Shown here: one piece after another, positions 3,176-27,240 of the stretch
Layout of the letters: every line of letters begins with the position of its first letter
Position numbering within the stretch: the first letter of the stretch is position 1
IMG/VR virus record: IMGVR_UViG_2740892012_000013
Span: 1 to 43,002 of that record
DNA from: a virus
Taxonomy: Duplodnaviria; Heunggongvirae; Uroviricota; Caudoviricetes
Reading direction: 5' to 3' (one strand)
DNA length: 43,002 nucleotides
Program-made: the position numbers and the translations under genes
Notes under the pieces: generated by a model
Seen by the model: the letters and a program-made list of their open reading frames with translations, nothing else
The model's database searches: none
Told to the model about the DNA's origin: nothing

Positions 3176-5827
3176 TTATTTTGATTCCAATAGTTCGAGT
3201 CGCTCTTCAATACGATCGCATCGACGGCGCTGATATGCAGCCTCAAGCCAAGCGCACTGGTCAGGCCGTATACCCCATGAACTACCCGCTTTTTTAACCA
3301 GCCTCTGTTCTCCGGTGTCATATTCGACGGTGACCAACTCACCAGACGTATCGGTAATCTCTTTAGTCGCGATTACCGGCTCAAAAATATCATCCCACTC
3401 GTCATAGCAAAGAAGGCCAAATCTGGTTCCATCAATTCCGTGCGCCAAGAATACATCCCTTACCTGCTGAGCCATGACGCCAAAATGCCATCTGGCACCA
3501 TCGCCCTTCATGGATATAGCGTCGAGCCATCGATACGCCACAACAGAAATATCGCCCCAGGCATCAAGAATGCTGTCTCTATCAGAAGAAAGCATTTCAC
3601 TTAAATCTGATATTGCCTCGGGATTGGTTTTCAGCGTGGCATCTGATGAAACGGTTGGGGCATTTGCAAAGTAGGCGTCTTTAATACGAAACGATGCCTG
3701 ACCAAAATTATAGGTATTGTCAGCAAACGGGCGAAGACCTGTATCATAAAACCGCCAGCGTATGGTTCCTCCCAATGCTGTCGGGTCGCTGTTGCATGCA
3801 ATATCCACCGTGGTGGCAGACCTAAACACAGAAGAACTACCGCCCAATACCAAGCTATTTGCGCTAGCTGTAGCCTGCTGGTCAAGGACCAATATTTTCT
3901 GAGAGTTTGTAGTTGCACCGGCATATGATGATGCAGTGATGCGGTTTAATTGGTTTGTATCAGGATCTGCGTTTTGCTGAATGGTTAAGTTAGATGCCCA
4001 CTGTGCCGGTCGCTGGCGCACAAATACAAAGTCACCAGAAGGATTAGTTGCAACCAAATAACTAATGCCACTATCAGATGAATAATAGTTGACTATAAAA
4101 GTCTGATTATTCGCATTCAGTATTTCAACATATGTGCTGGAAGGGATTGCCACGCCAGATATATCAGCAATGCTGACAGTCCCTGTGTAAAAATTAAATG
4201 CCTTCTGACTCATCTCCTGCATATAGCGAAGAATTTCAGTCATGTTAGTGAACAACGTACCATCTACAGGGTTAACAATCCCCTTCGCACTACGGGGATA
4301 TACCCCAATGCTCGCGTGATCGATATCAAATCCGCGGTAAAGCCTGGATGCAGGTGTAAAATCGATAGCATCTTTATCAGTGGAGAAATCTTCGAAAATA
4401 ACCAAACCTGAATTGTAAGGTTCAGAGCCAGTTCTTTCCTGATGAATGTAAAGTGAATAAATGGATTTTCCATCCTGAGAAACACAAACGCCTTCATTTT
4501 CTATGCGAGTGACGTTCAATCCTGCGGCTTTCATTAAATCCATCATGGCCTGAGGATGAAGCATTGATTCAGTTCGCTTTGTACCGTCAGGGTTAAAAAC
4601 TTTGCTGCCCTGATATTCGTTATATCCTGCGCTTCCTGCCCCATCAGCTATGAAGCCGCCATAGCCGCAGACAAAGTAGTTATCACCTACCGCAATACCC
4701 TGACGCTTGTTGAAATAAGGCGCATAAGGTGAGGTGCTTTTAGTTACATACCCAACATCATGTAACGGCAGCGTTATAGTTGACAGGCGATTGAAACCAC
4801 TGTCGAACACTGCAAGTACAGTTCTTGTGATTTTCTGTCCTACTTCTGGCGCATTCTGCTCAACGAGCCATATACCTCTTCTGTAGCTGAACTGGTTGAA
4901 TAATCCAACATCATGGTTTTGTACAAGAGGCAGATTGCTTCCGTATAATGCCCCCTCCATATTAAATTCACGCAGTATTCCGTTTGTGTGACCAACAAAC
5001 ATTTTTTTGGGGCCATAGTCTGACGTAACCACGATTCCTTCAGCAGCGAAGCCTGGGCCGCCAGCCTGAACATAGAAATAACCTTGATAAATACCAGATA
5101 TGTTAAATACTGCGACGACATTATTCGTCTGTTTAGGCTCAAATGGATAAGTGATGTATATCAAATCTTCGCTAACGCAGAATCCTTGAGGATACATATA
5201 AGTTGCTGACGGGTTAGCAGCCATAATCGCATCATATTCAGGAAAAAGAAGCGGCATCGTAGCTACAATCTTTCTTTGGTGATTTGTAAAAATATCGTTT
5301 TTAGCGCTGTTAGGTGTAGGCGTTACACCTCCAGTAAAAAGATCATCAACATAACCTTTATTGACAGCATCGTTTCTGTCAGTGGCATTTGCTAGATTTG
5401 ATATCTTATTATTTTTTGCATCATAATAGTTAGCCAGAATGCTTGGTTTTATAAGTGCTAACCTCATCCATGAAAAACACTTTTGAATAAGCATTGTCAG
5501 TTTATCGAACGCGTCTTCATGTACCTCAGCGAAGAACTTACCCTGATTACGCAAATCAGTATCCTGCGTAACCGGGAGCTCTCGTGATATAGAAATATGA
5601 TAACCGTTAGCCAACGCCTTCGACAGAATTACATTACCGCCATTATATCCTCCAGCATTGGTTACTGTGTAGTCAGTATCCAGAACCAATTCTGTTACGT
5701 TCCCGTTCAGGTCAGACACCTGAACAACCAGGTCGGATTTTTTGAAAATACGGAAGGTATACGGAAATGATGTCGTAGCTCCGTTACCGGTGTATTCGTT
5801 GTGGTCAACTTCGGTTGAGACCGTCAT
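3176..5827 (-). CDS. Tailspike/tail fibre with central receptor-binding or depolymerase region and C-terminal intramolecular-chaperone-like domain
   Basis: 883 aa; N-terminus MTVSTEVDHNEYTGNGATTSFPYTFRIF resembles conserved podovirus tailspike particle-binding domains (from memory); SD GGAGAT upstream; C-terminal ~150 aa look like a self-cleaving chaperone module. Confidence 0.8.
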   Translation of the reverse strand: MTVSTEVDHNEYTGNGATTSFPYTFRIFKKSDLVVQVSDLNGNVTELVLDTDYTVTNAGGYNGGNVILSKALANGYHISISRELPVTQDTDLRNQGKFFAEVHEDAFDKLTMLIQKCFSWMRLALIKPSILANYYDAKNNKISNLANATDRNDAVNKGYVDDLFTGGVTPTPNSAKNDIFTNHQRKIVATMPLLFPEYDAIMAANPSATYMYPQGFCVSEDLIYITYPFEPKQTNNVVAVFNISGIYQGYFYVQAGGPGFAAEGIVVTSDYGPKKMFVGHTNGILREFNMEGALYGSNLPLVQNHDVGLFNQFSYRRGIWLVEQNAPEVGQKITRTVLAVFDSGFNRLSTITLPLHDVGYVTKSTSPYAPYFNKRQGIAVGDNYFVCGYGGFIADGAGSAGYNEYQGSKVFNPDGTKRTESMLHPQAMMDLMKAAGLNVTRIENEGVCVSQDGKSIYSLYIHQERTGSEPYNSGLVIFEDFSTDKDAIDFTPASRLYRGFDIDHASIGVYPRSAKGIVNPVDGTLFTNMTEILRYMQEMSQKAFNFYTGTVSIADISGVAIPSSTYVEILNANNQTFIVNYYSSDSGISYLVATNPSGDFVFVRQRPAQWASNLTIQQNADPDTNQLNRITASSYAGATTNSQKILVLDQQATASANSLVLGGSSSVFRSATTVDIACNSDPTALGGTIRWRFYDTGLRPFADNTYNFGQASFRIKDAYFANAPTVSSDATLKTNPEAISDLSEMLSSDRDSILDAWGDISVVAYRWLDAISMKGDGARWHFGVMAQQVRDVFLAHGIDGTRFGLLCYDEWDDIFEPVIATKEITDTSGELVTVEYDTGEQRLVKKAGSSWGIRPDQCAWLEAAYQRRRCDRIEERLELLESK

Positions 5828-5930
5828 GTTAAATCTCCAGATAGTCGCAGCACCCGTTGCGCCGCATATCTGGTTATTCTATTACCTGGAAAACCACATA
5901 TGGATAGAAAGGCTGTAAATACGAATAGAT

Positions 5931-6303: not shown

Positions 6304-6810
6304 TTAACAGTCGTAAAATTCTGGGTCCCACAAACTTGCATCGCGCGGCATGGATTCTAACTTTTTCAGCCGCAAAATTCTGTCACACTCGACAACTAAT
6401 TTTTGCTTCTGCTCGTCAATTTCTACTGTCTTATGCGCTGGTTCATCCCAATAATCCAGAAGGAAGGCATGGCGTTCAGATGTGACCAGATAAATCACAT
6501 ACACGTCACTGGTTGGGATCTTTTTATGCTTGTTAGTGGTCTTGTCTTTCTTCCCAGACGCCCAGTTTTTCCAGCATTGTTCCGTACCGCTCTCACCAAA
6601 CTTGTCAGTATAGTTTCCGATGTTTAAGTGAACGTGGCGTATGTGATATTCCAGCATCTCTTTCGGTGGATCTCGAAACAGAGTGTCCTTTCCGAAATCC
6701 TTATGATGACCGTAGCGCCAGTGATCTATGAACGCGTTTTTGATAGGTATTAGCTCAGGGTCCTTCCCAAAAATTCCAGGGTGAACCAACCCCTGGAATT
6801 TATTCGGCAT
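6304..6810 (-). CDS. YafO-family-like toxin candidate (paralog 1)
   Basis: From ATG at 6810: ...FIDHWRYGHHKDFGKDTLFRDP...HIRHVHLNIGNY...YVIYLV...AFLLDYWDEPAH; pattern matches my recollection of E. coli YafO (GRDALYD...RVAHIHL...HLVYC...WLLIAILKPEPH). Paralog of 8881-9393. Confidence 0.55.
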   Translation of the reverse strand: MPNKFQGLVHPGIFGKDPELIPIKNAFIDHWRYGHHKDFGKDTLFRDPPKEMLEYHIRHVHLNIGNYTDKFGESGTEQCWKNWASGKKDKTTNKHKKIPTSDVYVIYLVTSERHAFLLDYWDEPAHKTVEIDEQKQKLVVECDRILRLKKLESMPRDASLWDPEFYDC

Positions 6811-7327
6811 CGTCGTAGAGCTCCTGAGCCATGTCTTCAGCAGTGCGTGCAAACATCCTGCGCGAGATTGCATGGGATTTCTCTACGGACATCTTTGGGA
6901 CCTCATGCATAACAAGTTGATGAGTTTTCTCATCAACTTGAAGTGGCTTGTATAAACGTTGCCACCTTTCGTTAATTTTATCCTTAAAGCCAGCGAAACC
7001 ACTTTCCTGACTCTTGTATCCAAAATGAGATAAAGCCAAATTCCTTTCCATTTCATTCCTAATGTACTCAGCAAGGTTGCAGTGGAATACTTCCCCTTGT
7101 TTTTTTAGGCATGCTTCATGGTCTGTAACACTGTGACGGCTCTCATATAAGTAAATGCGATAGGAATTTTTATTATCCTCTTCTTCATAATTTCTAATCG
7201 CATCAGCAGTTGCCATAGCTGCAGCATAAGCGGCTGCTTCAATCACCATCTCTTGCTCTTTTTCTTTTTCAGGCCTTTTCAAGGCAAAGCGTCTATGCCT
7301 CATCGCTGTAACTCTCTTCGTGTTCAT
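6800..7327 (-). CDS. Hypothetical protein, upstream partner of YafO-like paralog 1 (candidate antitoxin/regulator)
   Basis: ATG at 7327 with SD GGGGGTG; 175 aa, acidic C-terminus; 3' end overlaps toxin-candidate start by 11 nt; no family recognised. Confidence 0.45.
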   Translation of the reverse strand: MNTKRVTAMRHRRFALKRPEKEKEQEMVIEAAAYAAAMATADAIRNYEEEDNKNSYRIYLYESRHSVTDHEACLKKQGEVFHCNLAEYIRNEMERNLALSHFGYKSQESGFAGFKDKINERWQRLYKPLQVDEKTHQLVMHEVPKMSVEKSHAISRRMFARTAEDMAQELYDDAE

Positions 7328-7748: not shown

Positions 7749-8444
7749 ATGACAGCTACAAAAAGCACGTCCATTTTTTCTTTCGAATCCCAAGCCGATA
7801 TACGAGTAATCGTCATAAATGGTGAGCCATGGTTTATCGCTTCAGATGTTTGTCGGGCTATAGGCATAGCAAACCATCGAGATGCTGTTCGAAAACTTGA
7901 TGATGATGAGAAGGGCGTCGCTTCAACCGACACCCCTGGCGGTGAGCAAGAATCGATCATCATCTCCGAGTCAGGCCTCTACACACTGATCCTCCGCTGC
8001 CGCGACGCAGTGACACCAGGCACTATCCCCTACCGCTTTCGTAAATGGGTTACAGGTGAGGTTCTTCCTCAGATCCGCCGCACCGGAAGTTACATTAAAA
8101 ACTCGCTCCCGCAGGAAGAACGCATAAAGATGGTTGCCGACCAGGTAGCCAACGCCACAGCATCAGCAGTGATGCAGGCAATGAAGATAGAGAACAAAAC
8201 CTACAGCGCCCCACTGAAGCCCGGCTACCGCAGTTTGATTCACTCGCCGTCTGGTGTTCTCGGCCTGACGGAGAACTCACTGCTGATGAATCTGCTGAAC
8301 CAGTTACAGGAAGACGGGCACGACGTATCGGGCGCGGCGGCGGAGCTGACCACCATGTTCTGCTACATCGTCGGTGTGAGCAAATGCCTGCGTGATATCC
8401 AGACCCACGCGGAGTACATCAACGACAAGGCAGGGTTCTTCTGA
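7749..8444 (+). CDS. Antirepressor with N-terminal Bro-N domain and shared C-terminal (ORF6C-like) domain
   Basis: N-terminus FSFESQADIRVIVINGEPWFIASDVCRAIGI...ESGLYTLILRC...PYRFRKWVTGEVLPQIRRTGSY is a classic Bro-N signature; C-terminal ~75 aa near-identical to that of 9710-10648. Confidence 0.75.
   Translation: MTATKSTSIFSFESQADIRVIVINGEPWFIASDVCRAIGIANHRDAVRKLDDDEKGVASTDTPGGEQESIIISESGLYTLILRCRDAVTPGTIPYRFRKWVTGEVLPQIRRTGSYIKNSLPQEERIKMVADQVANATASAVMQAMKIENKTYSAPLKPGYRSLIHSPSGVLGLTENSLLMNLLNQLQEDGHDVSGAAAELTTMFCYIVGVSKCLRDIQTHAEYINDKAGFF
8211..8444. repeat. Left arm of ~234-bp near-identical inverted repeat (3' end of Bro-N antirepressor gene)
   Basis: Reverse complement of 9710-9943 with only a handful of mismatches by eye. 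Confidence 0.8.
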
Positions 8445-27163: not shown

Positions 27164-27240
27164 GTGGCATTAGCTCAGTTGGACAGAGCAACCGCCTTCT
27201 AAGCGGTTGGTCGCAGGTTCGAATCCTGCATGCCACGCCA
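27164..27240 (+). tRNA. tRNA-Arg (anticodon UCU, reads AGA)
   Basis: Folded by hand: 7-bp acceptor stem GTGGCAT/ATGCCAC, D-arm GCTC...GAGC, anticodon stem ACCGC/GCGGT with loop CTTCTAA, T-arm GCAGG-TTCGAAT-CCTGC, discriminator G, encoded CCA. Confidence 0.9.

Follow-up and report, generated by a model that had tools for sequence, protein, structure and literature searches.

Phage CUS-3 is a temperate podovirus that carries a capsule-directed spike and resides in strains with that capsule. Its endosialidase spike and that of K1F (1V0E, 3GW6) combine an exchangeable adaptor, a propeller head, a stalk and a chaperone released through a Ser-Lys dyad, and the head is a six-bladed GH58 sialidase with polysialic acid as its target. 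In endosialidases this dyad carries out a trimerisation-dependent self-cleavage (PMC3742443). Gp20 of phage epsilon15 is made of a beta-helix endorhamnosidase, a beta-sandwich and an SGNH esterase petal, is without a C-terminal chaperone and targets O-antigen (bioRxiv 10.64898/2026.07.31.742079), and the spikes or other receptor-binding proteins (RBPs) of Uetakevirus prophages usually follow the host O serogroup (PMC10408124). Gp45 of the staphylococcal phage phi11 has a stem, a five-bladed propeller platform and a tower, with the propeller as the proposed site for N-acetylglucosamine (GlcNAc)/wall teichoic acid (PMC4901313). Depolymerases of an 'n-bladed beta-propeller' class have been predicted with DepoScope/TropiGAT for Klebsiella, and their activity in phages was called unclear (PMC12491483). 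The K2 antigen is missing from the K antigens with known phage depolymerases in a list quoted in PMC12488582. Here we analysed a DNA stretch of 43,002 nucleotides from a virus of the Caudoviricetes (IMG/VR record IMGVR_UViG_2740892012_000013, positions 1 to 43,002; the window in the following), and in it the gene of an 883-residue tailspike.

The overall layout of this protein is closest to that of the K1 endosialidase spikes, but the head is modelled as an unrelated five-bladed propeller, the predicted target is the K2 capsule of Escherichia coli and the chassis is epsilon15-like. As a whole, we consider it likely that the gene encodes a three-module K2-capsule tailspike of an epsilon15-like podovirus. 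In the proposed mechanism, a single trimeric tailspike of a temperate podovirus would be built from three independently exchangeable modules. The anchor (residues 1-165) would dock the spike on an epsilon15-type tail. The head (residues 183-612) would recognise the K2 capsule through a pocket at the central channel of the propeller, with Y212, E263, E323, R335, K374, Q376 and R441-IENEG-446 as the putative lining, and would probably also cleave the polymer so that the short-tailed virion reaches the outer membrane. Stalk and chaperone (residues 613-883) would drive trimer folding and then be removed by autoproteolysis at Ser728/Lys733. We are quite confident of the K2 specificity of the tailspike, and see about even chances for a catalytic depolymerisation of K2 by the propeller.

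Under a sequence-only reading of this gene, a beta-helix or a hydrolase fold was to be expected in its central region. The central 500 residues gave nothing meaningful in searches of Pfam (E up to 10), NCBIfam or the PDB sequences. AlphaFold2 was run on residues 172-612 with an input alignment of 19 sequences and gave a model with a predicted local distance difference test (pLDDT) score of 87.1 and a predicted template modelling (pTM) score of 0.84. The model has about 20 short strands in residues 184-480, followed by a small alpha/beta domain; as modelled, the centre is a five-bladed beta-propeller plus a small domain instead of the beta-helix. The best PDB matches found with Foldseek were the RBPs of Staphylococcus phages NF5 (9M7X), 80alpha (6V8I), phi11 (Gp45, 5EFV) and P68 (6IAB), with E values of 7e-12 to 2.5e-9. 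Five-bladed bacterial glutaminyl cyclases also matched the model (TM 0.64-0.69 on target), and the top match in BFVD (TMq 0.81) was a tail fibre, that of Staphylococcus phage vB_SscM-1. The right-handed beta-helix known from P22, epsilon15 gp20 and HK620 was rejected, as no Pfam family matched at E<=10, the model is a propeller, and no beta-helix proteins were among the listed Foldseek matches.

The staphylococcal RBPs resemble the modelled head in that a five-bladed platform is joined to a further domain, and they are trimeric tail proteins recognising a polyol-phosphate polymer (wall teichoic acid), as is proposed here. They differ in having other stems, no S74 chaperone and no sequence-profile similarity to the window protein. 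The likeness to phi11 Gp45 is thus confined to the fold level: the profile of the propeller family (A3) matched none of the staphylococcal RBP chains in the PDB at E up to 10, and its match to Cj1041c (68 residues, E 0.002) was marginal. By its predicted five-bladed fold the head falls into the phage RBP propeller class, but by sequence the Pfam model of that class, Phage_RBD_prop, was not matched at E up to 10.

K2 is a group 2 capsule, a teichoic-acid-like galactosyl-glycerol-phosphate polymer. The last gene of K2 region 2 (kslABCDE) encodes a 331-residue 'hypothetical protein' (WP_061089240 / WP_001208051); in strain 2/0 it lies at L010:1048-2043 on the minus strand, and it occupies the same slot in four further loci (L011, L012, L016, L018). 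This protein is 40% identical to the tailspike propeller (residues ~187-481; BLASTP E 1e-70), and hhalign against the propeller family gave a probability of 100% (E 4e-59). It retains the YxYP, GEG, NKRQGIA-GD and SRIENEG motifs with all family-invariant residues, and is predicted to be a five-bladed propeller too. In contrast to the tailspike, it is host-encoded and stand-alone, with no anchor, second domain, stalk or chaperone. Its N-terminus, MALRLNSVFILAVICSIQICSAA, is signal-peptide-like. The propeller homology to this K2-locus protein indicates that the phage most likely targets the K2 capsule and not the O-antigen. The literature consulted treats kslABCDE as an operon only, and no function of the 331-residue gene was found there; nothing useful was found either on individual ksl functions or on the 72%-identical Kayfunavirus phages EcoIv39_Milel and EcoIv41_Bia.

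The same slot is filled in similar loci elsewhere. P0009, a stand-alone protein with a signal-peptide-like N-terminus, is 50% identical to the K2 331-residue protein and lies in a group-2-type capsule locus, adjoining a TPR/Glyphos_transf protein and convergent with KpsS/C/D. P0010 and P0047 were found in this slot of other divergent K2-type loci, and slot homologs are present in K2-type loci of other bacteria (L020:6001-7038, L027:6085-7146, L028:7001-7993). A secreted protein is unusual for a group 2 region 2. The 131-residue gene of K2 region 2 is named 'Pantoate--beta-alanine ligase', and the corresponding gene of the K2-type locus L028 has a match to Pfam CTP_transf_like.

The O- and K-types of lysogens were taken from RefSeq annotation. 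In RefSeq the identical 2652-nt coding sequence (CDS) is named 'tail fiber domain-containing protein' (WP_061092056.1), with 19 complete E. coli genomes carrying it. The gene was present at 99.6-100% nucleotide identity in strain 2/0 with an O25-family cluster, in dog strain P4 with an O4 cluster and in bovine strain C25 with an O6 cluster (PGAP names). These three strains have one common kps region 2, with genes for a small cytidylyltransferase-fold protein, a TPR protein, a 1266-residue protein of the CDP-glycerol glycerophosphotransferase family, an XcbB/CpsF protein and the 331-residue hypothetical protein. As a marker, the glycerophosphotransferase gene was detected in 141 of 5426 genomes (2.6%), and CFT073 as well as records with O6:K2:H1 and O2:K2:H1 in their titles have it at 100% identity, which identifies the common region 2 as the K2 locus. 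K2 region 2 was carried by 13 of the 15 distinct lysogen strains examined, a count that leaves out the sibling lysogen records 439, 446 and FP4. The naive hypergeometric P for the association of lysogeny with K2 is 1.4e-19. When only the three independent O-type backgrounds are counted it is 1.8e-5, and with a K2 frequency of 10-20% in the relevant background the three-background P becomes 1e-3 to 8e-3.

A 53%-identical module was found in the tail fibre of an unrelated Mu-like prophage (L014:6001-8376), which is present in 58 E. coli genomes and has an S74 chaperone of a different subtype. At least 22 of the 40 listed Mu-type carriers are K2 genomes, and Nord58 is the only one known to be non-K2. 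Both prophages occur together in Ecol_AZ146, P4, FP4, 98889, A1.S1.18 and Nord58, where two unrelated phages have one kind of receptor-binding head.

Some features of individual lysogens were also recorded. In the O25 cluster of strain 2/0 (L005:11496-12558) the gene at the expected wzy position is annotated as a frameshifted hypothetical, which may reflect either a genuine loss of O-antigen polymerisation or an error in the sequence. In Nord58 frameshifts are annotated in both kpsM and the CTX-M-15 gene, and a 1-nt indel splits the tailspike gene into two CDSs.

A profile search of 1.84 billion representatives gave ~350 clusters at 50% identity (E up to 1e-3) for the propeller family, which has no Pfam model and no solved relative by sequence. 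The window protein matches the family profile over ~300 residues and has the motifs Y-x-Y-P, G-E-G, K-R-Q-G and R-I-E-N-E-G. Y212, P213, E263, E323, R335, K374, Q376, G390, G407 and R441-IENEG-446 are invariant in 19 diverse sequences. Q376, G390 and E443 remain so in 66 members at greater distance, where E445/G446 are at least 90% conserved. In the model, the invariant residues would sit at inner-strand starts or B-C loops of successive blades, and judging from the strand topology they may cluster around the mouth of the central channel. Propeller proteins usually bind their ligands on the face around this channel.

The family is carried by 54 sequenced phages, of which 31 have Staphylococcus in their name (the inspected ones are Twort-like); the non-staphylococcal carriers are phages of Weissella, Erwinia, Salmonella and E. 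coli. Gp113 of vB_SscM-1 is a homolog by sequence, with 24% identity (tblastn E 2e-22). ZCEC08, vB_EcoP-U8 and HC6 make up a branch with 36% identity. Across the family the propeller is flanked by phage tail adaptors and Peptidase_S74, and the bodies stand on varied N-terminal adaptors: P22 head-binding, Tail_spike_N, T7 tail fibre, BppU_N, Mtd_N and a Mu-type baseplate context. In phage proteins the small alpha/beta domain accompanies the propeller, the stand-alone versions of capsule loci lack it, and stand-alone family proteins stop at about profile position 310. P0021 (343 residues, L022:2102-3133), also stand-alone with a signal-peptide-like N-terminus, lies in a phage context beside a lysis cassette, so that free-standing copies of the family occur in phages too. 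Its neighbour is a 1005-residue protein with a faint Phage_RBD_prop match.

Two enzyme names attached to relatives were followed up and rejected for the window protein. An endosialidase of family GH58 is not supported, as neither the window protein nor those of ZCEC08 and vB_EcoP-U8 contain the six-bladed Pfam domain End_tail_spike (PF12219); the label 'endo-N-acetylneuraminidase' of these relatives appears to derive from the common S74 chaperone. Glycerophosphodiester phosphodiesterase (GDPD) is the label of phrog_22693 and of staphylococcal homologs. Its Pfam domain PF03009 is absent from the window protein and from vB_SscM-1 gp113, and the window protein covers just positions 438-858 of the 968-position phrog_22693 profile. 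Misleading names are found for vB_Eco_ZCEC08 (L026:2018-4597) and vB_EcoP-U8 (L003:2254-5109), named 'endo-N-acetylneuraminidase' with only S74 in common with endosialidases, and for vB_SscM-1 gp113 (L002:2166-4988), named 'Glycerophosphoryl diester phosphodiesterase' and without a GDPD domain.

The modules around the head were compared between relatives. P0001 has a different anchor, of the P22 head-binding type, with 78% identity in the propeller, 95% in the stalk and 94% in the chaperone. P0002 has the same anchor type (63%), with 72% in the propeller and 63% in the stalk, and a different chaperone (34%). These per-domain identities indicate that the modules reassort independently. Residues 1-163 matched phrog_1640 among the tail-protein PHROGs (E 3e-102) and, in the PDB, the N-terminal part of the Dpo31 tailspike structure (E 1.9e-25). 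Pfam Phage_T7_tail matched partially at residues 134-161, and the anchor ends in a T7-tail-like 'NKISNLA..DAVNKGYVD' junction. Over the first 150-350 nt the identity to epsilon15-like phages of Escherichia, Salmonella and Enterobacter is 78-98%. With gp20 of epsilon15 and the phiV10-type spikes the protein shares the genome position and the N-terminal domain, whose first 350 nt are ~81% identical to those of an epsilon15-type Salmonella phage, but everything beyond about residue 165 is replaced. The N-terminal similarity and the position in the tailspike slot thus place the anchor in the epsilon15/Uetakevirus type. The tailspike gene was matched in 495 of 5426 complete E. coli genomes, 19 of them over most of its length, and among the matches listed all partial ones were confined to the first 340-410 nt. 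The 5' end is all that these partial matches share, and the centre is the exchangeable part.

At the other end, Pfam Peptidase_S74 (PF13884) scored 47.1 bits over residues 728-797, against a cutoff of 22. The structure of the C-terminal chaperone of K1F endosialidase (3GW6) aligns with residues 665-883 (E 3.9e-39), with the K1F-type long loop and the C-terminal helix as part of the match, and within this alignment residues 665-727, the last ~60 stalk residues, fall on residues 58-~120 of 3GW6, its stalk part (phmmer). S728 lies on the S911A position and K733 on K916 of 3GW6, giving the S-x4-K spacing of the dyad; D729 and K733 are invariant among relatives. The chaperone lies at the C-terminus, after the stalk, and its terminal helix, 'EAAYQRRRCDRIEERLELLESK', aligned to 'EAAYQRRKLERIEARLSALEQK' of 3GW6; in domains of this class such a helix (leucine zipper) keeps the chaperone trimer together. 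The chaperone is predicted to be cleaved off before S728. The tailspike identity, the conserved anchor, the self-cleaving chaperone signature and the variable centre as the probable seat of host specificity had all been named in the sequence-only reading, and agree with the anchor and chaperone matches, the K1F-like dyad, the epsilon15-like slot, the swapping of the centre between phages and the anchor-only matches listed among the 495 genomes.

Several observations weigh against a K2-cleaving tailspike. The lysogens are clonally related and the typed K2 lysogens carry O clusters of the type seen in extraintestinal pathogenic E. coli (ExPEC), so the naive P values overstate independence. Two lysogens of one sublineage, Nord58 and B19695, are non-K2 and have a ribitol-phosphate-type region 2, which was found in 133 genomes; this locus is without a propeller homolog, and its slot-equivalent protein is unrelated. 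As for catalysis, no hydrolase, lyase or phosphodiesterase family matches the centre by sequence, and phi11 Gp45 and its relatives, whose solved folds come closest, are considered to be binding proteins and not enzymes. The halo of ZCEC08, considered below, could be due to another virion protein. The case for binding or cleavage of K2 by the propeller family is drawn from genomic association and locus context.

The K2 association might then be a by-product of shared ancestry, with a prophage confined to few ExPEC lineages by its attachment site, immunity or another receptor, and directed at some other target. The lysogens are indeed in few lineages, the association was computed without phylogeny correction, and the two non-K2 lysogens imply that the prophage persists without K2. 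We nevertheless find this improbable, because three different O-type backgrounds are all K2, the module on the unrelated Mu-like prophage is likewise K2-enriched, and the homology to the K2-type capsule-locus gene is independent of the association. In both exceptions (L017, L019) kps is adjoined by an ISEcp1-blaCTX-M-15 insertion beside gspL, and the Mu-like prophage is present in Nord58 as well, in keeping with a capsule switch. With the slot protein unrelated, a switch after lysogeny is the simplest account of Nord58 and B19695, and the two appear to stem from a lineage that was K2 before its capsule was exchanged; alternatively, the spike may have dual specificity for K2 and the ribitol-phosphate-type capsule. 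General recognition of polyol-phosphate capsules is disfavoured by the same unrelated slot protein. A tailspike specific for O-antigen, as in epsilon15, phiV10 and most Uetakevirus prophages, would agree with the way Uetakevirus RBPs usually track O serogroup (PMC10408124) and with an anchor and a genome position like those of epsilon15 gp20. It is contradicted by the presence of one gene in O25, O4 and O6 strains (three lysogens typed), by a model without the beta-helix typical of O-antigen endoglycosidases and by a module homologous to a capsule-locus gene. We regard it as very improbable, and the receptor is probably not the O-antigen. Of the two receptors proposed from the sequence, O-antigen or capsule, the capsule is thus retained, through the K2 locus association and the K2-locus homolog, and the O-antigen is given up on account of the O25, O4 and O6 lysogens.

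More weight, although still less than to cleavage, can be given to a K2-binding tailspike that does not cleave, with a lectin-like propeller as proposed for phi11 Gp45 and passage through the capsule by another mechanism. This possible reading draws on the best solved matches, staphylococcal RBPs whose propeller is a GlcNAc/wall-teichoic-acid platform with no reported enzymatic activity, and on the absence of a catalytic family match by sequence. Against it, the charged residues E263, E323, R335, K374, E443 and E445 do not vary between hosts whose surface polymers are very different, and capsule biosynthesis loci retain a homolog whose N-terminus is signal-peptide-like, as is typical of polymer-processing enzymes. 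Polysaccharide operons often encode secreted enzymes that cut their own polymer, such as AlgL, BcsZ and PslG. In addition, phage vB_Eco_ZCEC08 makes halos, and its spike consists of Tail_spike_N, the propeller module (hhalign probability 100% against the family profile) and S74, with no other catalytic Pfam domain, which leaves the propeller module as the only candidate catalytic part of that spike. A K2-directed head that also cleaves would resemble the n-bladed beta-propeller class in having a propeller in place of a beta-helix as the presumed polysaccharide-processing module. That class differs in being fold-defined and heterogeneous, and no K2 or capsule-locus link is reported for it in PMC12491483.

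It is conceivable, but speculative and in our view rather doubtful, that the propeller is the catalytic core of an unrecognised enzyme family cutting teichoic-acid-like glycosyl-polyol-phosphate polymers. If this were true, the secreted copy of the K2 locus would process or release capsule, which might explain K2 shedding by uropathogenic E. coli, and phages of Gram-negative (K2 E. coli) and Gram-positive (staphylococcal, Weissella, Bacillus) hosts would have co-opted it. The tailspike would then be the first depolymerase of a coliphage with specificity for K2, and recent common ancestry would connect the receptor-binding domain of a phage with a gene of a host capsule locus.

The modular logic of such spikes is already well known and the propeller fold class has been flagged computationally before. 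What appears to be new is the predicted K2 specificity, the homology of an RBP domain to a capsule-locus gene and the span of one family from K2 E. coli to staphylococcal phages. K2 is a major capsule of ExPEC and the capsule of CFT073, and in the genome collection used here it also occurs in O25b:H4-ST131, O2 and O4 strains. A K2-specific spike, if confirmed, would be a reagent for capsule typing, for anti-virulence capsule stripping and for retargeting of phages or tailocins. The case connects capsule biosynthesis loci, Gram-negative tailspikes and staphylococcal wall-teichoic-acid-binding proteins, which are usually handled apart, and the 'beta-propeller depolymerase' class gains a concrete candidate substrate. 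It also follows that the RBPs of Uetakevirus prophages cannot safely be assumed to report the host O serogroup.

Features of the tailspike gene, with positions in the window
Feature	Position	Strand	Basis
Tailspike gene, 883 aa + stop	3176..5827	-	ORF (open reading frame) list, translation; identical CDS in RefSeq
GGAG ribosome-binding site, 8-11 nt 5' of ATG	5835..5838	-	read from sequence
N-terminal anchor aa 1-165, epsilon15/Uetakevirus type	5333..5827	-	PHROG, PDB, Pfam, nt identity
Linker aa 166-182, anchor to common body	5282..5332	-	relatives with other anchors align from ~aa 177
Five-bladed beta-propeller aa 183-487, predicted receptor-binding, possibly catalytic	4367..5281	-	AlphaFold2, Foldseek, 40% identity to K2 protein
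R441-I-E-N-E-G446 motif, inner-strand start of last blade	4490..4507	-	invariant in 19 diverse sequences
Small alpha/beta domain aa 488-612	3992..4366	-	model secondary structure, profile coverage of family
Stalk aa 613-727, into chaperone	3647..3991	-	phmmer alignment to 3GW6; 95% identity in P0001
S728-D-A-T-L-K733, predicted Ser-Lys dyad and cleavage site	3629..3646	-	alignment to 3GW6
Intramolecular chaperone/autoprotease aa 728-883, Peptidase_S74	3179..3646	-	PF13884 E 2.9e-12; 3GW6 E 3.9e-39

The prophage that carries the gene is epsilon15-like (Uetakevirus-type) and lies between yfgI and guaA, with the integrase adjoining guaA. Its gene order is epsilon15-like, and the position of the gene is the tailspike slot of epsilon15-type genomes. 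The tailspike gene is flanked by accessory genes (Bro-N antirepressor, YafO-like toxins) and, downstream, by the lysis cassette, which encodes two holins, a GH19 endolysin and a DUF2514 protein. Unlike in epsilon15, the tailspike gene is not followed by a gene for O-antigen or capsule conversion. Between the tailspike and the tail genes the accessory island occupies window positions 6304-6873 (-), 7749-8444 (+), 8568-8894 (+) and 8881-9393 (+). It contains a Bro-N antirepressor-like gene and two ORFs named YafO-family toxins by RefSeq, of which only 8881-9393 gave a Pfam YafO match, weak and sub-threshold.

A tRNA-Arg (anticodon TCT) is present on the prophage at window positions 27164-27240 (+), ~1.1 kb off from the place predicted by the copy in strain 2/0. 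This offset indicates that the prophage copies differ by indels, despite a 100% identical tailspike. In the strain 2/0 copy (L025:16341-18052) a DGQHR-domain protein and an MT-A70 family methyltransferase adjoin the integrase, and together they may serve the prophage in DNA modification or defence. Along the tailspike gene itself, the segments for anchor, linker, propeller and second domain (window 3992-5827) have GC contents of 0.39-0.43, compared with 0.48 for the whole window, and the chaperone segment is above them at 0.49. This step in GC fits a mosaic origin of the gene.

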